Below are positions 830 through 42,970 of a DNA stretch of 64,000 nt, one piece after another. Where the stretch lies: positions 5,231 to 69,230 of the forward strand of contig JAHEQA010000004.1 of assembly GCA_019561615.1 (NCBI GenBank). Reading direction: 5' to 3'. The stretch is from Methanothermococcus sp. SCGC AD-155-E23. GTDB lineage: Archaea > AGJL01 > Methanococci > Methanococcales > Methanococcaceae. The notes under the pieces are model-generated. The model was given only the letters and a program-made list of their open reading frames with translations. It searched no databases and was not told where the DNA came from. Both the position numbers and the translations under genes were made by a program. The first letter of the stretch is position 1; each line of letters opens with the position of its first letter.

Positions 830-944
830 AATCTATTTTGTTATAGCGGTCCGTTCTGGTTATCCACAAGTAGTGTATAACCTTCCCTCTTATCTGAGAG
901 CTTTCGGGGGAAGAGGAACTCCCCACATCTTCAGGAGAATAGCT

Positions 945-1086
945 GTGCCCATTCGGGCTTAAGTCCCCCACATATCGGGCACAGGGAGGGGGTAAAAGCG
1001 GGATTTACAAAAACAGTTTTTATCCCCTTTAATTTAGCCTTGTATTCGATGATAGATTGGAGCTTACGAAAACTCCAGTTGTGTAA
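945..1086 (-). pseudogene. tnpB: TnpB fragment
   Basis: WSFRKLQSIIEYKA and VNPAFTPSLCPICG motifs; no start codon; RuvC I/II and the second CxxC are deleted. Confidence 0.85.
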
Positions 1087-6666: not shown

Positions 6667-8826
6667 ATGGCTATGGAGGGCTTTACTCTGGAGTACGACG
6701 AGGAGGAATTTATTGAGAAGTACGGAGACAAGGTAAAGTTATACATGAAACATAAGTTAGCAGAGGAGGATATAAAGAACAACATCTTTGAATTCGATAT
6801 AAGGGATTTCCTAAGGTATTTTCCAGAGGCTGCCGAGATAAACGACATTATTATAGAGTATCCCCTGAAGGTTGAAGACACCCTCTTCTATCTATTTAAA
6901 CAGACCTACAAGGAGGTATTTGGTGAGGAGAGTAAGACAGAGAAGGAGCTGGAGAAGATCCAGATATCTATAAAGAATCCCCTAGGTTGTGAGAAGAAGA
7001 TAGAGGACATAAGTTCTTTCGATATTAACAAACTTATAACCTTTGAGGGGGACATCATATCTGCCACTAAGGTAAGAGCCCTACTTAAGAAGGCCTACTT
7101 CATATGTAAACGTTGTGGGAATACAAAGAAATACACCATATCCGATTACTTTAAAAAAATCCCTAGGATTTTATGTGAGGAGTGTAAGGAGGAGATGGTA
7201 CTAGATCTGGACAGTTCCACCTATGTAAATATTCAGGAGTTGGAGATTCAACAACCTATAGATCTCATGAAGAATCCAGAGGAGCCTCCAAAGAGTATAA
7301 AGGTGTTCCTGGAAAACTCCCGAGGTATATACTCTGGAAGGGTGAAGGTAGTAGGAACTGTAATAAGAAAGAGTACCCGTTCTAACATCCATCTACCAAT
7401 TTTTGAGATATGTGTTAGAAGTAACAGCCTCTCTCCCATTGAAAGTTATCAGAGGATTGAGGTTAGGGACATCCTCAAGGAACCTGAGTTAATAGAGACC
7501 TTAAATGAACTGGGGAAAAAGAAGAACATAGTGGACCTACTGTCCAACTACCTTCTATCCCAGATTAAAGGCTATGAGATGGTAAAGAAGGCCATATTCC
7601 TTCAACAGATAAAGGGGTGTATGAAGTTCCTACCAGATGGTGCTCCTCTAAGGAGGGACAGTCATATACTCCTTATTACAGACCCTGGAATTGGGAAGTC
7701 CACCATGTTAAGGAGAATAGCTAGGCTTCTCCCTCAGAACTCCTACGCCTCAGTTACCACGGCCACAGGTGGAGGGCTTACAGCTACCGTTGTAAGGGAG
7801 AGTACAGATATAGGGGATGGATGGGTGGTGAAGCCTGGGGTCTTTGTAAAGTCCAACGAGGGTACAGCCTGTATAGATGAACTTACAGTGGATAGGGATG
7901 TTATGAAGTACATCCTGGAGGCCATGGAATCCCAGACCATACATGTGAATAAGGGGGGTTTAAATGTAAAACTCCCTGCGAGATGTGCAGTCCTTGCAGC
8001 CTGTAACCCAAAGAGGGGGAGGTTCGATCCTAACTTAGGGGTTGTTGAGCAGATAGATATACCGCCACCTCTTCTCAGTAGATTTGACCTTATATTCCCA
8101 CTTAGGGATATACCAGATAGGAAGAGGGATGAGGAGATAGCAGAGCACATCCTAGATGTCCATGTAGAGACTGCAACTAAGAAGTACTCCATATTGAAGC
8201 CCCTTGAGATAGATGGGATAGTGGTAGATGAGGATCTACTGAAGAGTTATATCATCTATGCCAGGACCTGTGCATACTTCGAGGAGAACCTGGCACTCTT
8301 TATGGAAGAGGAGGAGATAGATGAGAGGGAGATAAAAAATCCCCATCTAACAAACTCTGCAAAGAAGATCATCAAAGACTTCTACCTGGAGATGAGGAAG
8401 TTAGGGGAGGAGGACAACCCAATACCAGTTACGGCGAGACAGTTGGAGGCTATTATAAGGATATCTGAGATGCATGCAAAGGCCAGGTTGTCAAGGAAGG
8501 TTGAGGAGAGGGATGCAAAGGCTGCCATCGAGATTATAAGGGAGTGCTTAAACCAGGTTGCCTACGATCCAGAGACTGGAAAGTACGACATAGACAAGGT
8601 CATGGGGCAACTGCCAAAGTCCAAGTATGAAAAGATGGACAAGATACTGGAGATTATAGCGGAACTCTCTGCACTCTCCAAGGACGGTTTAGCTGCAGAG
8701 GATGACATAATAGAGAGGGCTGCTGAGTTTGGTATCTCTGAGAAGGAGGTAGAGGAACTACTGGAGAAGTTAAAGAGGAATGCAGAGATATACTCACCTA
8801 GGTTTGGATACTACAGGATCACCTAG
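6667..8826 (+). CDS. mcm: MCM replicative helicase
   Basis: Zn finger CKRC..CEEC, Walker A ITDPGIGKS, CIDE, AMESQ, ACNPKRGRF, LSRFDLIF, TARQLE. Confidence 0.96.
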   Translation: MAMEGFTLEYDEEEFIEKYGDKVKLYMKHKLAEEDIKNNIFEFDIRDFLRYFPEAAEINDIIIEYPLKVEDTLFYLFKQTYKEVFGEESKTEKELEKIQISIKNPLGCEKKIEDISSFDINKLITFEGDIISATKVRALLKKAYFICKRCGNTKKYTISDYFKKIPRILCEECKEEMVLDLDSSTYVNIQELEIQQPIDLMKNPEEPPKSIKVFLENSRGIYSGRVKVVGTVIRKSTRSNIHLPIFEICVRSNSLSPIESYQRIEVRDILKEPELIETLNELGKKKNIVDLLSNYLLSQIKGYEMVKKAIFLQQIKGCMKFLPDGAPLRRDSHILLITDPGIGKSTMLRRIARLLPQNSYASVTTATGGGLTATVVRESTDIGDGWVVKPGVFVKSNEGTACIDELTVDRDVMKYILEAMESQTIHVNKGGLNVKLPARCAVLAACNPKRGRFDPNLGVVEQIDIPPPLLSRFDLIFPLRDIPDRKRDEEIAEHILDVHVETATKKYSILKPLEIDGIVVDEDLLKSYIIYARTCAYFEENLALFMEEEEIDEREIKNPHLTNSAKKIIKDFYLEMRKLGEEDNPIPVTARQLEAIIRISEMHAKARLSRKVEERDAKAAIEIIRECLNQVAYDPETGKYDIDKVMGQLPKSKYEKMDKILEIIAELSALSKDGLAAEDDIIERAAEFGISEKEVEELLEKLKRNAEIYSPRFGYYRIT

Positions 8827-8864
8827 GGATAAGTATATAAAGATGGGGAAATATCTATCTAGAT

Positions 8865-8923
8865 GGTGGATGATGATCGGTGGTAGCTTCTGACCTGTGA
8901 TGAATGATGGGCGAACTGACACC
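8865..8923 (+). ncRNA. Box C/D methylation-guide sRNA
   Basis: GGTG/CACC terminal stem, C ATGATGA 8870, D' CTGA 8890, C' GTGATGA 8897, D CTGA 8916, 13- and 12-nt guides, TATA ~30 nt upstream. Confidence 0.92.
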
Positions 8924-8927
8924 TTAA

Positions 8928-9185
8928 CTATTTTTTCTTCCTCATAACTGCAGAAAATGCTATGGTTCCAACAGGTCCAGCCACTATTATAAAAAGTGCC
9001 ACTGTTTCTCCAAAGGGTATATGGAACTTCTGGGAGAGTACCACTAGAAAGGTGGCCACTACTATGGCCATTAGGCCCTCCCCAATGAGTACATTGGAGG
9101 TATTCCTGTGGAAGCAGAGTTTCAGGGAGGAGAGTGCTCCAACTATCAGGGAGAACATGGTAAAGTAGAGTATGTACTCCTTCAT
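8928..9185 (-). CDS. Small 3-TM membrane protein (possibly an MnhF-like/energy-converting hydrogenase subunit)
   Basis: Three hydrophobic segments with GPVGTIAF; family assignment is tentative. Confidence 0.55.
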   Translation of the reverse strand: MKEYILYFTMFSLIVGALSSLKLCFHRNTSNVLIGEGLMAIVVATFLVVLSQKFHIPFGETVALFIIVAGPVGTIAFSAVMRKKK

Positions 9186-9197
9186 TGCCAACCCCTC

Positions 9198-9377
9198 TTA
9201 TTTTATTATACCAAGATACCTTATTGCCCAAAGTATAAAGATCACAGCTCCAAGTACCAATGCAAACCACACCCAGAGGGTTACAAGGTAGTAGAGTTTA
9301 TAGAGTCTCTCCATATTTTTTGGATTGTTCAGCAACCTCTTAAATGGATCTAAGCCCCTGTACCTTCTTTTTTTCAT
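9198..9377 (-). CDS. 59-aa single-TM protein (below ORF track cutoff)
   Basis: MKKRRYRGLDPFKRLLNNPKNMERLYKLYYLVTLWVWFALVLGAVIFILWAIRYLGIIK; ATG overlaps the upstream TGA (ATGA); fills the operon gap. Confidence 0.75.
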   Translation of the reverse strand: MKKRRYRGLDPFKRLLNNPKNMERLYKLYYLVTLWVWFALVLGAVIFILWAIRYLGIIK

Positions 9378-13073: not shown

Positions 13074-15050
13074 ATGGAAAACCCCAGAGTAGGGGTCTTT
13101 ATCTGCTACTGCGGTACCAACATCAACGGTGTCGTAGATTGTGAGGCGGTGAAGGAGTTTGCCTCAAAACTTGACGGGGTAGTGTATGCAGAGACCTACC
13201 CCTTCTATTGTTCCGATCCTGGACAGAAGTCCATTAAGAATGCAATAAAGGAGTACAACTTAAACAGGATTGTTGTTGCTGCATGTACCCCCAAGATCCA
13301 TGAACCTACCTTTAGAATCTGTATTGCAGAGGCTGGATTGTCTCCATACTACCTGGAGTTTGTAAATATCAGGGAGCATGTCTCCTTCGTTCACCTGGAG
13401 GACAGGGAGGCTGCAACAAAGAAGGCTATGGAGTTAGTTGCAGGGGGTGTTGAGAGGGCTAAGAGGTTGGAGGATGTACCTAAGAAGGTTGTAGAGGTAG
13501 ACAAGTCCTGTCTTATCATTGGAGGAGGTATTGCCGGTATCCAGGCTGCCCTGGACTTAGGGGATCAGGGCTATAAGGTATATCTGGTAGAGAAGGAGGA
13601 GTCCATTGGAGGTAGGATGGCCCAGCTGGCCAAGACATTCCCAACAGATGACTGTGCCCTTTGAATCCTGGCTCCTAAGATGGTTACAGTAGCAAACCAC
13701 CCTAACGTTGAGATCATCACCTACGCCGAGATAAAGGATGTCTCTGGATACATAGGTAACTTTGAGGTAACTATAGAGAAGAAGCCAAGATACGTGGATG
13801 AGTCCAAGTGTACAGGATGTGGTGCCTGTGCCAACGTATGTCCCATCGAGGTACCTAACGAATTTGACTTGGGGTTAGGTACCAGGAAGGCTATATACGT
13901 ACCCTTTGCCCAGGCTGTCCCCCTGGTATACACCATAGACAGGGAGCACTGTATCGACTGTAAGTTATGTGAAAGTGTCTGTGGGCCTGGAGCCATAGAC
14001 TTCAACCAGAAACCAGAGGAGATCAAGTTAAAGGTAGGTACAATAATTGTGGCTACTGGCTTCGACGAGTTCGATGCCTCCCTCAAGGAGGAGTACGGCT
14101 ATGGAGTCTACGACAACGTAATAACTACCTTAGAACTGGAGAGGATGATAAACCCTGCAGGGCCCACAGGAGGACATGTAATAAGACCCAGTGATGGAAA
14201 ACATCCCCACAGGGTAGTATTCATACAGTGTGTAGGTTCCAGGGATCTAAAGGTTGGCAACCCCTACTGTTCAAGGATCTGCTGTATGTTCGCCCTAAAG
14301 AATGCCCAACTGATAAAGATGCACGATCCAGATGCAGAGGTTTACATCTGCTACATGGATATAAGGGCCTTTGGAAAGGGGTATGAGGAGTACTATCAGA
14401 GAGCCCAGGAACAGTTTGGAGTTAAATTCATAAGGGGAAGACCTGCATGTGTCATGGAGGATCCAGAAACCAAGAACCTCCTAGTTCGAGTGGAGGATAC
14501 ATTGATGGGAGAGATAGTGGAGATAGAGTGTGACTTGGTGGTACTCTCTGCAGGGCTTGTACCAAGACCAGAGGCCAAAGATGTAGCAAAGATGCTGGGG
14601 TTGGACATCAGCCCAGATGGATTCTTCAAGGAGCTCCATCCAAAGTTGGCACCAGTTAACACCAAGGTGGACGGTATAGCCATTGCAGGTGTGGCACAGG
14701 GTCCTAAGGACATCCCTGATACAGTGGCCCAGGCAAAGGGTGCAGCAAGTGCAGTGGCAATACCTATGGCCAGGGGTAAATTTGAGATAGAGATGATAAG
14801 GGCAGTGGTAGATGAGGAGGTCTGTGGAGGATGTGAAATCTGTGCCTCTGTCTGCCCATACAACGCCATATCCTACAGGGAAGTTGAGGGGCACCTAGTG
14901 GCAGAGGTAAATGATATAGCATGTAAAGGTTGCGGTTCCTGCTGTGCAGCCTGTCCAAGTGGGGCCCTGCAGTTGAGATACTACAGAGATCATCAGGTAA
15001 TAGCTGTAATAGATGGAATCCTAGATGTCCACAAGATGATAAACCAGTAA
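13074..15050 (+). CDS. hdrA: Heterodisulfide reductase subunit A, selenoprotein (658 aa; UGA=Sec at 13662-13664)
   Basis: Two track ORFs are in frame across TGA: FPTDDCAL-U-ILAPKM; FAD and ferredoxin motifs; SECIS in 3' UTR. Confidence 0.96.
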
Positions 15051-15110
15051 AGGGGGCAGCCTATTAGCTATCAACGTTAGGGTGGTTTGCTGGAGAGAAA
15101 AAAAGTTTAA

Positions 15111-15143
15111 GGTCCCATCCGAAGGCACTGCCAGGATGGGACC
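15111..15143 (+). promoter_or_regulatory. Archaeal SECIS element of hdrA
   Basis: GGTCCCATCC-GAA-GGC-ACT-GCC-A-GGATGGGACC: 10-bp stem, GAA/A bulge, 3 G-C pairs. Confidence 0.92.
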
Positions 15144-15152
15144 AGATGAAAT

Positions 15153-15231
15153 AAGATGTGGGGAGTTCCGTTCCCCCTGAAAGCCCACCAAGATTAAGGT
15201 GGGAAGATCCTCCTTGGGAGGATCAGAACGG
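15153..15231 (+). ncRNA. Orphan IS607/TnpB right-end (omegaRNA-like) structured element
   Basis: Homologous to minus-strand 851-931: AAGATGTGGGGAGTTCC..TTCCCCC.GAAAGC, two variable hairpins, CAGAACGG. Confidence 0.75.
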
Positions 15232-15284
15232 CTATTCTCACTTTTATTATTGTTATCCTCATTATTTTTTTAAAGGTGAAAGGT

Positions 15285-15692
15285 ATGGAGACCCCAGTAA
15301 TAATTGCATTTGCATGTTATCAGTGAGGGTATGGAGCTGCAGATCTAGCTGGAACCAGTAAGATGCAGTACCCTCCATCTGTTAGAATTATAAGGATACC
15401 CTGCACTGGCAGATTTGATATATCTTATGCCCTCAGGGCCTTCCAGAAGGGTGCAGATGGGGTTATGGTTGTAGGGTGAAAACCCCACGAGTGTGTCTAT
15501 GAAAGTGGGAACTTCAGGGCCGAGGAGAGGGTAAAACTTACAAAAGAGATACTGGAGGAGCTGGGGATAGGGGGAGAGAGGATAGAGATATTCCTCATGA
15601 GTGCGGCAGATGCTGCCAAGTTTGTTGAGGCTGTAAATATCATGACTGAGAGGGTTAACAGGTTAGGCCCTAACCCCTTGAAGAGCCAGTGA
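15285..15692 (+). CDS. vhuD: F420-nonreducing hydrogenase subunit D, selenoprotein (Sec at 15324 and 15477)
   Basis: METPVIIAFACYQ-U-GYGAADLAGTSKMQYP..IPCTGR..GADGVMVVG-U-KPHEC..LGPNPL; GGTGA RBS; absent from the ORF track. Confidence 0.95.
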
Positions 15693-15803: not shown

Positions 15804-16670
15804 ATGGGAGAGAAGGTTAAGTTAGGAATGATTCAACTATGTGGATGTTCCGGCTGTCATATATCCCTCCTAGACCTTCACGACCAACTTCTCAAGGTAC
15901 TTCCACAGGTGGAGATCCTCTTCGCTCCCATAGTGGCAGATATGAAGGAGATTCCAGAGGGTATAGATGTATTCCTGGTGGAGGGAGGTATTAGAAATGA
16001 ACATGAGAAACATCTCTTAGAGGAGATAAGGGAGAAGTCAAAGGTTGTAGTGGCATGGGGGACCTGTGCAGCCTACGGAGGAATACCAGGCTTAGGTAAC
16101 CTCTACCCCACTGAAGAACTCCTTAAAGAGGCATTCTCCACAGGTACTGTAGATAACCCTAGAGAGATACCTGAGGAGGATATCCCAAAACTACTGGATA
16201 GGGTGTATCCAGTATCCCACTTTATCGATGTAGACCTTCTACTACCAGGATGCCCTCCAAAACCTGAACACAACCTAGAGTTGATAGGTGCACTGTTGGA
16301 GGGGAGGGAACCTAAGATATCCAAGAAGATAGTATGTGACCAGTGTTCAAGGAAGAGGGAGGGGACCTATCCTGAGGAGTTTAAGAGGACCTTTGAAGGT
16401 ACTCCAGATAGGGAGAGGTGTCTCTTTGAACAGGGTTATACCTGTGTAGGTATGGCTACAAGGGCTGGATGTGGAGCTGTCTGTCCCTCTGCAAATGTAC
16501 CCTGTAGGGGATGCTATGGGAAGACAGATGCAGTTCTTGATCAGGGGGCTGCAGTGGCAAATGCATATGCCCTTACAGGGGATGCAGCACTGAAACTCCC
16601 TGACAAGTTAGGACTGTTTTACAGGTTCTCCATGGCTGCAGGACTAATACCTAAGAAGATCCACAAGTAA
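15804..16670 (+). CDS. vhuG: F420-nonreducing hydrogenase small subunit
   Basis: CGCSGC, GTCAAYGGIPG, PGCPP, distal Cys cluster motifs. Confidence 0.95.
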   Translation: MGEKVKLGMIQLCGCSGCHISLLDLHDQLLKVLPQVEILFAPIVADMKEIPEGIDVFLVEGGIRNEHEKHLLEEIREKSKVVVAWGTCAAYGGIPGLGNLYPTEELLKEAFSTGTVDNPREIPEEDIPKLLDRVYPVSHFIDVDLLLPGCPPKPEHNLELIGALLEGREPKISKKIVCDQCSRKREGTYPEEFKRTFEGTPDRERCLFEQGYTCVGMATRAGCGAVCPSANVPCRGCYGKTDAVLDQGAAVANAYALTGDAALKLPDKLGLFYRFSMAAGLIPKKIHK

Positions 16671-16686
16671 AAGATGGTGACATACC

Positions 16687-17946
16687 ATGGGTAAGATTAC
16701 TATAGAGCCTCTAAGTCGTCTTGAAGGTCATGGTAAGGTTACTATTGTAGTAGATGATTTTGGAAAACCCCTGGAAGTTAAACTCCATATAACTGCAATA
16801 AGGGGGTTTGAGAAGTTTGTAGTGGGGAGGCCTGCTGAAGAGGTGCCAAGGATAGTTACAAGGATCTGTGGGATATGTCAGACACCTCACCACCTGGCAA
16901 GTGTCAAGGCAGTTGATGCCGCCTGGGATGTTGAGATCCCAGAGGCCGCAAAGAAACTTAGAGAGTTAATGTTACTAGGTAATATGATCCACAGCCACGC
17001 CCTACACTTCTACTACCTGGCAGTGCCAGACTTTGTAATGGGTCTAGATGCAGATCCTAAGGTTAGAAATGTTGTAGGTTTAATGGAAAAATCCCCTGAA
17101 ATGGTTAAAAAGGCCATAGTACTGAGAAAGTTCGGCCAGAGTATAGTGGAAAAAGTTGGAGGTAGGCCTATACATCCAGTTACTGGTATTCCAGGGGGTA
17201 TTGCCAAGACACTAAGTGAAGAGGAGAGGGACGCCTTCTTAAAGGAAATTGACACCATGATAGAGTATGCCAGGGAGAGTGTGGAGTTGATCAAATCCAT
17301 AAACGAGAGTTATATGGACATTGTAAAGTCAGTAGGGGTTATAGATACCTGGTACCTAGGTATTGTGAAGGATGGTAAACACTCCTTCTACGATGGTGTC
17401 TTAAGGTTCCTCTCCCCAGATGGTAGTGAGAAGGTAGAGTTCTCTTTCTCTGAGTACCAGGACTACATAGGGGAGCACAACGTACCACATAGCTATGTAA
17501 AGTACCCCTACTACAAGAAGGTAGGATACCCTGAAGGGATCTACAGGGTTGGTCCCCTGGCGATGATGAACGTATGTGACAGTATCCCTACACCCCTGGC
17601 TGAGGAGGCTAGAAGGGAGTTCTTAGATATGTTTGGAAGTCCAGCAAATCAGTCCCTGGCCTATCACCACGCCAGACTTATAGAGTTACTTGCAGCATGT
17701 GAGAGGACCAAGGAGTTACTGGAAGACAGTGAGATTACATCCACAGATGTTAAGGTGGATGTGGAGCCAAAGGCAGGTGATGGTGTGGGAGTTGTAGAGG
17801 CTCCAAGGGGGGTTCTAATACATCACTACCAGACAGATGATAGGGGAATTGTCACAAAGGCTAACATGATAGTAGCCTCTACACATAACGTACCTGCAAT
17901 GGAGGAGGCCCTTAAACAGGCTGTAGAGGAGATATTTAAAAAGTAA
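16687..17946 (+). CDS. vhuA: F420-nonreducing [NiFeSe] hydrogenase large subunit (C-terminal Ni motif supplied by VhuU)
   Basis: SRLEGHG, RICGIC, HSHALH, EAPRG; no DPCxxC at the C-terminus. Confidence 0.95.
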   Translation: MGKITIEPLSRLEGHGKVTIVVDDFGKPLEVKLHITAIRGFEKFVVGRPAEEVPRIVTRICGICQTPHHLASVKAVDAAWDVEIPEAAKKLRELMLLGNMIHSHALHFYYLAVPDFVMGLDADPKVRNVVGLMEKSPEMVKKAIVLRKFGQSIVEKVGGRPIHPVTGIPGGIAKTLSEEERDAFLKEIDTMIEYARESVELIKSINESYMDIVKSVGVIDTWYLGIVKDGKHSFYDGVLRFLSPDGSEKVEFSFSEYQDYIGEHNVPHSYVKYPYYKKVGYPEGIYRVGPLAMMNVCDSIPTPLAEEARREFLDMFGSPANQSLAYHHARLIELLAACERTKELLEDSEITSTDVKVDVEPKAGDGVGVVEAPRGVLIHHYQTDDRGIVTKANMIVASTHNVPAMEEALKQAVEEIFKK

Positions 17947-18176: not shown

Positions 18177-19325
18177 ATGGGAGGTATAAAAATCCAGGAG
18201 GATCTCTGCCTAGTATGTAACGCCTGTACTGCCGTCTGTCCCACAGAGGCCATAGAAATAGATCCCTTTAAAACCTGTATGTTATGTATGAGTTGTGTTG
18301 AAGCCTGTCCCACTGGAGCACTTTATCAGTCCAACGACGTTATAGCCTACAACCCCTCTAAGTGTCTAAAGTGTGGAGAGTGTGCAGAGGCATGTCCCAC
18401 TAAGATAAAGAAGGTTGATGACAGATATCCCTATTCCAAGGGACACTGTATCCTATGTAAGAGATGTGTAGAGATATGTCCAATAGAGATCATCTCCATA
18501 CCTGGGGTGATTGAGAAGCCCAAGAAAAAGATCCAGATACCTAAGGAGCCAATAGTAGTTACAGAGGACTGTGTAGGTTGTGAGATCTGTGTCCCTGTAT
18601 GCCCTATAGGGGCTATAAAGATGGAGGGTGGTAGGGCTGTTGTTGACAAGGATAAATGTGTATACTGTTCCATATGTGCCCAAACCTGTCCCTGGAATGC
18701 CATCTACGTAGCTGGTAGGATACCTAAGAAGAGGAAGAAGGAGATATTAAAATTTGAAGTGGATGAGAGTAAATGTATAGGATGTGCACTATGTGTTGAG
18801 GTCTGTCCAGGGGATATGATAAAGTTCAACAGGGAGAGGAATATAGTGGAGGTTCCAAAGGCCTGTCCAGCATGTAAGTTATGTGTAAGGGCCTGTCCCG
18901 TAGATGCCCTAACTCTAGAGGTGAAGTTTGAATCCCCACACCCAATTACAGAGGAGGGCCTGGTAATTATCGAGGAGGATTACAATATACTGGAGAAGTG
19001 TGCCAGGGTATGTCCCACAGATGCTATTGTAGTAGATAAGAAGAGTAAAAGTGTAAGGATGTGTATAGTCTGTGGTGCATGTACTGTGGCATGTCCAACT
19101 GGGGCTTTAAAACTGGGAAAGATAAACCACAGGGGGAAGGAGTACAACAGAATAGAGTACAGTCCCTACCTATGTAGGAAATGTGGTGAATGTGTAAAGG
19201 TATGTCCAATGAAGACCTTAAGGTTGTCAAGGGGTAAGATACCTTTGAAGGGGTACTGTGTAATGTGTCTACTATGTCTCTCCTGTGCAGAGGCTGAAAA
19301 GAAGAAGGTACTGGAGTTAAGGTAA
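18177..19325 (+). CDS. vhuB: Polyferredoxin
   Basis: About 11 CxxCxxCxxxCP-type motifs; last gene of the vhu operon. Confidence 0.92.
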
Positions 19326-39211: not shown

Positions 39212-39327
39212 GGGGATATGGTGTAGTCTGGTCTATCATCGGGGACTCCAAGTGCCTATATGGGCTTGGACCAACCCCGTGCAGGAGAAATCCCCGGACC
39301 TGGGTTCAAATCCCAGTATCCCCACCA
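39212..39327 (+). tRNA. tRNA-Trp(CCA) with 38-nt intron (39252-39289)
   Basis: GGGGATA/TATCCCC acceptor, CT-CCA-A anticodon loop, BHB (CTCC/GGAG helix, AAG and AAA bulges), GTTCAAATC, encoded CCA. Confidence 0.95.
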
Positions 39328-40334: not shown

Positions 40335-42203
40335 ATGAAAAAACTACCTCTCATAGTTGTATTTCTTCTCTTCCTCAGTGGTTGTCTTCAAAAGTCAGAG
40401 ATGGATAAGCTAGAGGATTTTAAAGTGGTAATAGCAGATGAGAAAAACTTTAAGGATTTTTTAAATAGGTTGGAAAGTGGAGGTTACACCCCTCTAGATG
40501 TTAAAAAATCCTATACTCCAACTCTGGAGAGTTCCCTCTCCAAGGAGGAGGCTCCCATAGCTATAGAGAGATACTCCAGAACTAACGTCCAGGTTGAGGG
40601 GATAGATGAAGGGGATATTGTAAAAAGTGACGGTAGGTATATCTACTTCTCCCCAGAGGCCGATGTAAAGATAATGTACCATATATATCCACCTCCATGG
40701 AGGAGAAAAACCTATATTGTAGAGGCCTTTCCCCCAGCATCTGCAGGGGTAGTTGGTAACATATCCCATGGAGGTATCCTCTACCTCTCCAATCACACCT
40801 TGGTAGTGATAGAGAGGGATAAAATACTAGGTTATGATGTAAGCTCTCCTAGAGATCCAAGGTTGAAGTGGAAGATAGATATAGATGGTACCTATGTGGA
40901 TTCCAGGTTGTACAGTGGAAAACTCTACCTGGTAGTTAGGAAGAGGGAGATAAAATACCCCCTTCCCTGGATGGATACAGAGATTAAGAATTACTACATC
41001 CCTATCCTACCTTCCACAGTATCCTACAACTTCCAGGACTCCTACATAGTGTCAGCAATAGATCTAGACAGTGGGAATATCTCCAAGGTTGTAGCCCTAC
41101 CAGGTTCCAGGAGTACAGTTGTCTACATGTCAAAGAACAGGATATACCTTGCCTATTATTTAGGCCCAAATATCAAGAGGTTGTACCTTCAATTCCTAGA
41201 GGAGAACCTGGATAAGTACTTCCCAGAGGATGTGAGGGATATACTTAGACATATAATAGACTCGAAGTACTTCAGTGACGATGCAAAGTTCCTGGAGGTA
41301 AAGAGGGTAATAAACAATTACTTAAGAACCTTGGAGGGGGAGGAGGCCCTAAACTTGAGAAATACCTTGGAGAAAGACTTCGAGAAGTACTTAGAGGAGC
41401 ACTGGGAGGAACTTGAAAAAACAGGAATAGTAGGTATAGACATAGACACCTTCCAGGTTAAAAGTGGCAGTGTTCCAGGGAGGCTTGTAAACTCCTACGC
41501 CATGGATGAGTACAGAGGATATCTAAGGGTTGCCACTACAGTAGGAGATTACTGGAGGTACAGGGATAGAAGTACCAACAATATCTACGTCCTTAAAGAC
41601 CTGGAGGTATATGGGAAACTTACAGGGCTTGCCAGGGGGGAGAGGATCTACGGGGTAAGGTTTATGGGGGATGTTGCCTACCTTGTCACCTACAGGGAGA
41701 AGGACCCCCTCTTTGTAATAGATCTAAGTGACCCTAGGAATCCCAAACTCCTTGGAAAGTTGAAGATACCTGGTTACTCCACCTACCTCCATCCCATAGA
41801 TGACAGTAGATTAATTGGGGTAGGTAGGGATGAGAGAGGTAATTTGAAGGTATCCCTCTTCAACGTAGAGAATAAAACTAATCCTATAGAGGTGGATCGA
41901 TTTATACTTCCCAAGTACTGGTCTCCTGTACTTTACAACCCTCACGCCTTTCTATGGGATGAGGAGAACAGGATATTTGTAATTCCAACGGGAGACAGTT
42001 GTTATATATTCAGGATAAAGGGGGATAGGATATCCCTGGAGATGGAAGATGTCCACAGGGGAAATGTTTTAAGATCCCTCTATATTAACCATTACCTCTA
42101 CACCCTCTCAAACAAGGAGATCCATGTAATAGATATGGGGGATTGGAAGGTTGTTAAAAAGGTGATAATACAGGAACCCAGAACGGTTTGGATAAACAAC
42201 TAA
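40335..42203 (+). CDS. Beta-propeller domain lipoprotein
   Basis: Lipobox LSGC, YSRTNVQVEGIDEGDIVKSDG, GERIYGVRF, DPLFVIDL, GYSTYLHP. Confidence 0.85.
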   Translation: MKKLPLIVVFLLFLSGCLQKSEMDKLEDFKVVIADEKNFKDFLNRLESGGYTPLDVKKSYTPTLESSLSKEEAPIAIERYSRTNVQVEGIDEGDIVKSDGRYIYFSPEADVKIMYHIYPPPWRRKTYIVEAFPPASAGVVGNISHGGILYLSNHTLVVIERDKILGYDVSSPRDPRLKWKIDIDGTYVDSRLYSGKLYLVVRKREIKYPLPWMDTEIKNYYIPILPSTVSYNFQDSYIVSAIDLDSGNISKVVALPGSRSTVVYMSKNRIYLAYYLGPNIKRLYLQFLEENLDKYFPEDVRDILRHIIDSKYFSDDAKFLEVKRVINNYLRTLEGEEALNLRNTLEKDFEKYLEEHWEELEKTGIVGIDIDTFQVKSGSVPGRLVNSYAMDEYRGYLRVATTVGDYWRYRDRSTNNIYVLKDLEVYGKLTGLARGERIYGVRFMGDVAYLVTYREKDPLFVIDLSDPRNPKLLGKLKIPGYSTYLHPIDDSRLIGVGRDERGNLKVSLFNVENKTNPIEVDRFILPKYWSPVLYNPHAFLWDEENRIFVIPTGDSCYIFRIKGDRISLEMEDVHRGNVLRSLYINHYLYTLSNKEIHVIDMGDWKVVKKVIIQEPRTVWINN

Positions 42204-42970
42204 TTTATTCTCGTCCCAATACTCTCATCCCCTATTAGCCCTCTATAGATGTTGCCCCTCCTACTCCCGTTGAATATAAGTACCTTGACACCCATCTTGT
42301 AGGCCTCCATCACCTTGAGGTACATTCCCCCAGTTACATCCTCCTTTTTAGAGGACTTTAGATATTTCACAACCTCTTTTATGTTTTCTGAGTTGATACT
42401 CCTTATTACCTCACCCTCTCCATCTAGTACCCCATCTACATCTGAGGCGTGGAGACTTATATCTGGTTTTAATCTTTTAGTGAGATAGGGTAGTGCATGA
42501 TCTCCAGAGAATATCCTATAACCCTCTCTCTCAGATATTACAACGTCTCCATGGATTACTGGTACCAACCCCCTTTTTAACATACCCTCTATTACGTAGG
42601 TGTCAAAGTGGATTCCCTCCTCCCTGAAGGCTACAAAGGAGGAGGGCTGGATAGAAACCCCTGGGATACCATAATCCTGAAGGGCATCTATCACCAAGGT
42701 GTTGAACCTCCTCATGGCTTTTTGAATCTCCCAAAAACCCCTCTCCATATTTTCAAATCTTCCCTTTTTCATGTATTTCCTTGCCACAGGGTGGCCAAAG
42801 GAACCTCCTCCGTGGATAAGTATCAGCTTCAACTCCTCCCCCCTCTCTAGGTAGTAGTCCATAGCCCTCCTGATCTCCTCTGCAACCCTCTCTAAGTTGT
42901 CCCACTTTACAGAGAAGGGGATGTCCCTGTTACAGAGTACACTACCTCCAATCTTCAAGATCGCAAACAT
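42200..42970 (-). CDS. Isopentenyl phosphate kinase
   Basis: KIGGSV, HGGGSFGH, HGD, SGD, DVTGGM. Confidence 0.92.
   Translation of the reverse strand: MFAILKIGGSVLCNRDIPFSVKWDNLERVAEEIRRAMDYYLERGEELKLILIHGGGSFGHPVARKYMKKGRFENMERGFWEIQKAMRRFNTLVIDALQDYGIPGVSIQPSSFVAFREEGIHFDTYVIEGMLKRGLVPVIHGDVVISEREGYRIFSGDHALPYLTKRLKPDISLHASDVDGVLDGEGEVIRSINSENIKEVVKYLKSSKKEDVTGGMYLKVMEAYKMGVKVLIFNGSRRGNIYRGLIGDESIGTRIN

Follow-up and report, generated by a model that had tools for sequence, protein, structure and literature searches.

A solo right-end piece of a putative tnpB-only insertion sequence between hdrA and vhuD in Methanothermococcus

Gene-less relatives of tnpB elements and the hdrA-vhuD site

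Stand-alone omegaRNAs that lack an effector gene, and PATE-like gene-less derivatives of the IS200/IS605 group, have been described (PMC10691335; Meers et al., PMC10055086). As portrayed in these sources, the genomes concerned also hold effector loci, and the elements are mobilisable, with both ends present. The 79-nt element that follows the hdrA gene in the Methanothermococcus genome studied here (the hdrA copy) resembles these RNAs in consisting of a right-end scaffold without a nuclease gene, in having several dispersed copies and in ending at the element boundary. Unlike the examples portrayed there, it is devoid of a left end and of the 5′ portion of the scaffold, searches of the genome assembly revealed no intact TnpB, and it is situated 9 nt behind a SECIS hairpin within the hdrA-vhu gene cluster.

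Another parallel is provided by the omegaRNA of ISDra2 TnpB, for which the cryo-EM report (PMC10097598) describes several stems, pairing of pre-guide nucleotides with a 5′ segment, and an overlap with the 3′ end of tnpB, features that the hdrA copy and its family resemble. According to the same report the ISDra2 omegaRNA comprises four stems in 116 nt, whereas the hdrA copy has three in 79 nt and a pseudoknot that is predicted only; the two are likened by architecture, not by sequence. In the archaeon Halobacterium salinarum, the account of Gomes-Filho et al. (2015, PMC4615843) covers sotRNAs of IS1341-type tnpB genes and a PATE-derived intergenic RNA, VNG_R0052, which is reported there to be expressed and to influence growth. 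These RNAs share with the hdrA copy an archaeal host, an origin from the 3′ end of tnpB-only elements and the existence of a gene-less intergenic derivative; they differ in coming, as described there, from another archaeal phylum and in belonging to another sequence family. A further comparison is with HgcC (Rfam RF00062), which is likewise a multi-copy, G+C-rich structured RNA of the Methanococcales and is said in PMC4615843 to hold a tetraloop similar to that of the right end.

The 64,000-nt stretch of DNA analysed here (the window) belongs to a genome assembly of 1.04 Mb in 51 contigs (G000), which is 86% complete and has a G+C content of 43%; the assembly of its sister species (G011) is 99% complete. 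The hdrA gene (13074–15050, plus strand) is read through an in-frame TGA codon for selenocysteine (Sec) at 13662–13664. Its frame is unbroken save for this one TGA, and FAD-binding and 4Fe-4S Pfam domains are found on both halves. The predicted fold of the SECIS hairpin at 15111–15143 (plus strand) shows a 10-bp stem, a GAA bulge, a 3-bp GGC/GCC top and an A bulge. Its match to the Rfam flpD family (RF01737) is weak, with 19.7 bits against a gathering score of 40, but the hairpin has the features of an archaeal SECIS element: it lies in the 3′ UTR, contains the GAA and A bulges and is located downstream of an hdrA gene with an in-frame TGA. It is followed by a linker of 9 nt (15144–15152, plus strand), which evolves fast, with three differences from G011 among ten aligned positions and one additional gap. 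As the SECIS stem ends at 15143, the element (15153–15231, plus strand) starts 9 nt behind it, in agreement with the preliminary description of this DNA.

Downstream of the element lies a T-rich spacer (15232–15284, plus strand), ancestral in origin, which would be the 'guide' flank and contains the ribosome-binding site GGTGA of vhuD. The vhuD gene itself (15285–15692, plus strand) carries two in-frame TGA codons (Sec), and its translation with TGA read as U matches Pfam FlpD with 163.9 bits. It is succeeded on the same strand by vhuG (15804–16670), vhuA (16687–17946) and vhuB (18177–19325), and the gene cluster includes Pfam matches to Oxidored_q6, NiFeSe_Hases and Fer4. No tnpB frame precedes the hdrA copy, as had been noticed before. 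A 67-aa frame at 15158–15361 was rejected as coding sequence: it has no Pfam match, and three 1-nt indels relative to G011 fall within 15153–15285. A scan for bacterial-type terminators yielded none on the plus strand.

The SECIS shape is the same in all ten hdrA-vhuD spacers of the genus that were folded. In eight of these the stem is bordered by AGATGA on its 5′ side and by CTGAT on its 3′ side (TTGAT in G002 and G008), and in six (G002, G003, G004, G006, G008 and G012) a small hairpin of the GGGRCTAWGTRGYCC type is located directly 3′ of the SECIS element. G000 and G011 have lost both the 5′ AGATGA motif and the small hairpin. Upstream of the SECIS element, the blocks GGGTGGTT and GGCA are kept across the genus in the hdrA 3′ UTRs (15085–15152 in the window).

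The right-end family and its hairpins

The element is predicted to fold into three hairpins on the plus strand, formed by the segments 15160–15165/15171–15176, 15184–15189/15198–15203 and 15206–15213/15217–15224. The folding energy of −32.7 kcal/mol (z −2.47) was equalled by 3 of 200 shuffled sequences. Hairpin 3 is a short version, with 8 bp and a small loop, of a longer hairpin that is present in nearly all family members. In addition CCGTTC (15168–15173) is exactly complementary to the terminal GAACGG (15226–15231), and these two segments are possible pseudoknot arms.

The window contains a second copy of the family at 851–931 on the minus strand. The two copies were claimed to share the layout of the 79 nt, which is borne out: both are present at these positions and both fold into three hairpins. 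The blocks AAGATGTGGGGAGTTCC, CCCC..GAAAGC, GGGAAG and CAGAACGG are common to both, while hairpins 2 and 3 differ in sequence and retain their pairing in each.

Two covariance models were used, one (R1) constructed from five of the six G000 copies and an independent one (R2) from 20 copies of other genomes, containing no G000 copy and leaving out the G011 orthologue. R1 gives 71.8 bits for the hdrA copy and 104.8 bits for the copy at 851–931; the corresponding R2 scores are 75.0 bits (E = 3.7e-20 in the 64-kb window) and 76.3 bits. Since R2, built without G000 copies, finds the hdrA copy, its membership of a structured repeat family is beyond chance likeness. Apart from the two copies, R2 finds nothing better than E = 0.027 in the 64 kb; the weak matches at 42046–42186 (14.7 bits, E = 0.027) and 42603–42709 (13.1 bits, E = 0.08) are probably due to chance. 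A BLAST search with the 79 nt against its own genome retrieves four other copies (E = 3e-6 to 7e-5), and with R1 the number of family copies in G000 is six. R1 matches occur in 20 of 61 genomes, G000 included, and in 8 of 26 genera.

The pairing of the three hairpins is preserved through sequence change. In an alignment of 30 distinct family sequences, fitted to the model and thereby favouring structure, 92.4% of the cells pair and 15 of the 25 base pairs show double changes, including four of the five pairs of hairpin 2 and all ten of hairpin 3. None of 500 shuffles reaches this score, and slid controls pair at 41–59%. The long-range CCGTTC/GAACGG interaction, which is predicted only, pairs in 83.2% of the cells, with a double change at one of its six pairs (CCGTTG/CAACGG, in copies of G058). 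The five G000 copies other than the hdrA copy form a young sub-family, being 88–95% identical to the 851–931 copy over the BLAST-aligned pieces, and share a mutation in the loop of hairpin 1, CCTCTTC instead of CCGTTC, which breaks the long-range pairing. That the hdrA copy has kept this complementarity and the five others have lost it, a difference already pointed out for the copy at 851–931, counts against reading the hdrA copy as a fossil. Outside the hdrA copy, its stem words CCCACC/GGTGGG and GATCCTCC/GGAGGATC are confined to the G011 orthologue and, in a longer form, to one copy of G001.

The origin of the family is evident from intact copies elsewhere, in which a TnpB reading frame of 404–412 aa ends inside the element. 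Two such frames, one of 412 aa (L018) and one of 410 aa (L021) counted from stop to stop, extend 101 and 89 nt into the element, respectively, before they end, and match the zinc-ribbon profile PF07282 with 77–78 bits, the OrfB_IS605 matches being weaker. All full G000 copies lose similarity right after CAGAACGG, as do those of relatives, so that the element boundary lies there and the adjoining flank occupies the guide position. The element therefore consists of the tnpB 3′ end and the right end, from which the omegaRNA derives in characterised TnpB systems. Directly upstream of the 851–931 copy, a remnant of the C-terminal zinc ribbon of TnpB is preserved at 925–1086 (minus strand). It comprises about 55 aa with in-frame stops, matches PF07282 with 40 bits across one TGA and aligns in tblastn to residues 288–342 of an intact TnpB (E = 4e-14). 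This trace agrees with the preliminary interpretation of 851–931 as an IS remnant, even if it spans only those ~55 interrupted residues; its assignment to IS607 is unsupported. The serine recombinase gene expected next to tnpB in IS607 is absent at both intact family copies that were examined (in G032 and G015). The upstream neighbours at these loci encode a HAD hydrolase and a PfkB kinase (G032) and a nitrogenase-type oxidoreductase (G015); as these are ordinary metabolic genes and not transposases, the family elements are tnpB-only (IS1341-like). Judged by these sequence comparisons, the 79 nt represent the terminal portion of an IS1341-type, tnpB-only insertion sequence that belongs to the IS200/IS605 group. 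The earlier view of a protein-free, omegaRNA-like TnpB right-end piece is upheld by three covarying hairpins and a possible pseudoknot adjoining the would-be guide.

The first part of the window, in which the remnant and its family copy lie, begins with the C-terminal part of an MCM helicase gene (2–829; MCM, MCM_lid and winged-helix domains), which is followed by about 1 kb without long reading frames. Positions 1–2086 have no DNA counterpart in the 12 other genomes of the genus, save for the family repeats and a weak match in G012 (query 8–171, 69% identity), and the G011 match to the window begins only at 2087, at a contig end. The region may be part of an integrated mobile element. Upstream of another G000 copy, on contig C36 (~87870–89300, corresponding to L013 1–1430), no plausible genes are present; two other repeat families found there are abundant in both G011 and G009, and one family forms a tandem array in G011 with a unit of ~109 nt.

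A correspondence to HgcC, which had been suggested for the element, does not hold. RF00062 gives no match in the window at its gathering score (50 bits), in 14900–15400 at E ≤ 10, in the whole of G000 at E ≤ 10, or in G011, and its matches in G017, G032 and G033 are at other coordinates than those of R1. No Rfam family was found in 13 related loci, permissive scans giving chance-level matches only. By these searches, the right-end family is without a match in Rfam and distinct from HgcC. At gathering scores the Rfam scan of the window detected two tRNAs and the C/D-box sRNA sR2 only. The tRNA gene at 39212–39324 (45.8 bits) has an insert of ~40 nt in the anticodon region, likely an intron. The sR2 gene (8866–8921, 47.2 bits) lies in an intergenic stretch (8827–9000) that differs from G011 at 4 of 174 positions, and is overlapped by a 158-aa minus-strand frame (8794–9270) which, with no changes at 59 4-fold sites, is probably no gene.

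With respect to mobilisable copies, the hdrA copy is an incomplete scaffold. The intact copies of G015 and G032 and, within G000, the copies on contigs C29 and C46 possess a left end starting with GGGCTGTTT; upstream of the hdrA copy this left end is absent, its place being taken by the SECIS element. A PATE-like mini-element, which is gene-less and has both ends, was considered and rejected for this reason. The flanks of the four left ends do not allow a TAM to be derived. Most gene-less copies, from several genera, keep an extra hairpin of ~50 nt just upstream (the 5′ module), as found in L017, L020, L022, L023, L025, L035, L039, L043 and at 932–985 (minus strand) of the window. The codons for the CPxCGG...NGH part of the TnpB zinc ribbon make up this module, whose stem varies in sequence yet still pairs (GCAGTCCC/GGGACTGC, GTGCCC/GGGCAC and CAGTCTCC/GGAGACTG are examples). 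This suggests that a hairpin, of RNA or DNA, is conserved within tnpB and would be part of the scaffold. Neither the hdrA copy nor the orthologue in G011 has this module, and hairpin 3 is shortened in both.

Scanning of metagenomes with the hairpin-1 motif detected at least 120 loci. Among the 80 examined, 24 have a frame of at least 300 aa ending in or near the element and 16 have the 5′ hairpin module; in the majority of the other 40 the tnpB coding sequence is decayed, the module is of a variant form or the contig ends. In none of the 80 is a SECIS core motif present within 80 nt upstream, nor do they contain the CCCACC or GATCCTCC stem words. A c1-type hairpin 3 has no match in the metagenomes, while the species genomes contain two records of this pattern, one of the long-hairpin and one of the short-hairpin form. 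Viral contigs contain no copy of the family with the motif searched.

Distribution, turnover and possible constraint

A 1001-nt query across the spacer has an end-to-end match of 94% in G011, where the orthologous element occupies the same site, with the same stems, the same downstream flank and the same three-hairpin fold. The element is thus not confined to one strain but present at the same place in a second species. It is absent from the hdrA-vhuD site in the three relatives that come next, G009, G004 and G005: the ~101–120 nt of G000 correspond to 23 nt in G009 and G004, and G005 has an unrelated spacer of 184 nt. More distant members of the genus have long, A+T-rich hdrA-vhuD spacers. 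The presence in G000 and G011 together with the absence from G009, G004 and G005 fits one gain in the ancestor of the former two. As the sequence that follows the element (CACTTTTATTA ... TTTTTTTAAAGGTGAAA) can be recognised in G004, G009 and G005, where the element is missing, this flank is ancestral host sequence and not an acquired spacer. In G011 an extra C is inserted exactly at 15231/15232, the junction of scaffold and guide.

The site was also compared with DNA contigs from four hydrothermal-vent runs. Near-identical contigs bearing the element, which come from three studies, occur in runs X3, X4 and X5, namely a 588-nt contig with two differences, one with five and one with none, and no variant among those listed for the vent runs falls inside the element. 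Vent contigs of relatives jump from 15140–15142 (in one case from 15090) to 15282–15294.

Family copies at other sites have a different history. The G000 copies on contigs C46 and C29, in which left ends are present, have no counterpart in G011 and G009, their flanks being contiguous there, and at the sites of three of the eight other G011 copies G000 has the two flanks joined. Excision of IS200/IS605 elements is described as scarless (PMC10055086), so that gain and loss of copies bearing a left end are indistinguishable. A copy without a left end, such as the hdrA copy, cannot be excised and may have become fixed without selection being invoked.

The divergence between G000 and G011 was measured over a collinear block of 21.7 kb. 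It amounts to 14.0% at 4-fold degenerate sites (374 of 2667), 6.4% in intergenic DNA outside the hdrA-vhuD spacer (94 of 1475) and 5.1% in the element (4 of 79), with no change in the 53 nt after the element (0 of 53, 0%) and 30% in the ten aligned positions of the linker before it. The element is no slower than other intergenic DNA (Fisher P = 0.43). It is slower than 4-fold sites (P = 0.011), an observation that argues against a fossil, as does the location of the four substitutions and one internal indel between the two species, all of which are outside the stems (P = 0.029 from these five events; P = 0.008 if the pseudoknot arms are counted as paired). The sole other relic found to be shared by both species (on C27 in G000 and C35 in G011) has lost about half of its hairpins in G011, where each of the three is missing a large part and the terminal CAGAACGG is gone, although its flanks are ~95% alike; this is a single control. 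Constraint on the stems of the hdrA copy, with one control and five events, is suggestive and not decisive. Of the preliminary proposal of a selectively kept, domesticated scaffold, selective retention finds weak agreement in the avoidance of the stems by sequence changes (P about 0.03) and is opposed by a rate equal to that of other intergenic DNA. Domestication is not borne out.

A probably stranded element and its alternatives

On balance, the hdrA copy is probably a stranded, non-excisable IS fossil. The ancestor shared by G000 and G011 would have acquired a family element in its hdrA-vhuD spacer, and this element would then have lost its left end, tnpB and the 5′ hairpin module, such that the terminal three-hairpin unit remained. 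Having no left end, this unit could not be excised by a transposase and would have stayed in place, while mini-copies bearing left ends came and went elsewhere. It would probably be carried passively on the hdrA 3′ UTR or on an hdrA-vhuD intercistronic RNA. In a cell devoid of TnpB it would guide nothing, and its effect on the host would be neutral or nearly so.

Alternatively, the three G+C-rich hairpins may have been co-opted as an RNA acting in cis, either as a stable 3′ structure or as a processing or insulating module in the hdrA 3′ UTR. Such a module would protect the SECIS-bearing hdrA message or separate hdrA from vhuD, in place of the small post-SECIS hairpin of other species. This reading is a tentative one and rather unlikely to be correct. 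It would account for stems that are intact in both species, all five changes being unpaired, while the sole other shared relic has decayed, and for a folding energy of −32.7 kcal/mol within an A+T-rich spacer; the test of stem avoidance, however, draws on five events, and the element changes at a rate no lower than that of other intergenic DNA. Similarly, the small hairpin behind the SECIS element in six of the ten genus spacers, where G000 and G011 carry the element instead, would fit a replacement, but G009 and G005 have neither the hairpin nor the element, which means that no structure is required at the hdrA-vhuD site, and only two species carry the element. Doubtful, and a shade less probable, is the more specific form of this idea, in which the scaffold, after losing its nuclease and its mobility, would have been taken over as a 3′ UTR module that stabilises or delimits the hdrA transcript or shields the SECIS element, replacing the small hairpin of other Methanothermococcus-like species.

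A role in trans had been put forward in the preliminary description and is now considered improbable. The hdrA copy would then be an orphan omegaRNA, with the flank CTATTCTCAC... as guide, loaded by a TnpB or a nuclease-dead relative encoded elsewhere (in an unassembled IS, a plasmid or a virus), which it would direct to a DNA target. Stand-alone omegaRNAs working in trans feature in the sources cited above (PMC10691335, PMC10055086), and the complementarity of the pseudoknot type next to the guide position is kept, as in the ISDra2 omegaRNA (PMC10097598). Profile and protein searches reveal no intact TnpB in G000, G011, G009, G001, G004 or G005. PF07282 exceeds its cut-off in G000 only at the broken remnant, which is also all that tblastn finds (55 aa), and nowhere in the other five genomes; PF01385 (OrfB_IS605) and Y1_Tnp have no match in G000. 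A TnpB protein query against the 13 genomes of the genus finds nothing in G011 and whole genes only in G006, G010 and G012, with 28–35% identity; R1 has no match in these three. Assemblies often omit insertion sequences, and given the 51 contigs and the 86% completeness of G000 a TnpB gene could be missing from this assembly, but none is found in G011 at 99% completeness either. Moreover, the scaffold is without the 5′ hairpin module and has a shortened hairpin 3, the extra C of G011 shifts the register of the guide relative to the scaffold, and the flank is ancestral spacer and not an acquired target. Neither the 16-nt nor the 20-nt stretch of the flank has a second match in G000 with up to two mismatches, and in viral contigs the 20-mer has no exact match and the family motif no copies. 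The absence of a detectable TnpB, the C at the junction, the lack of a target match and the missing 5′ module together make a trans-acting guide unlikely. Least credible of all is a role at the DNA level, in which the right-end hairpin would still be bound or cleaved by a Y1 transposase or would be a hot spot of recombination. Hairpin 3 occupies the position of the sub-terminal right-end hairpin and has double changes in all ten pairs, and covariation cannot separate DNA hairpins from RNA hairpins; yet G000 has no match to a Y1 transposase, the hdrA copy has no left end, and its hairpin is shorter than in nearly all other family members.

As it stands, the hdrA copy is an ordinary by-product of IS decay, and stand-alone TnpB scaffolds have been described before. 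The analysis describes a structured right-end family whose hairpins covary strongly and which occurs in 20 of the 61 related genomes searched as well as in numerous metagenome contigs. The pair of G000 and G011 constitutes a small natural experiment, in which mini-copies with left ends turn over and the hdrA copy, devoid of a left end, is fixed with its stems intact. If these stems were under selection, a guide-RNA scaffold would have found a second use as an element of an mRNA, in an operon central to methanogenesis.
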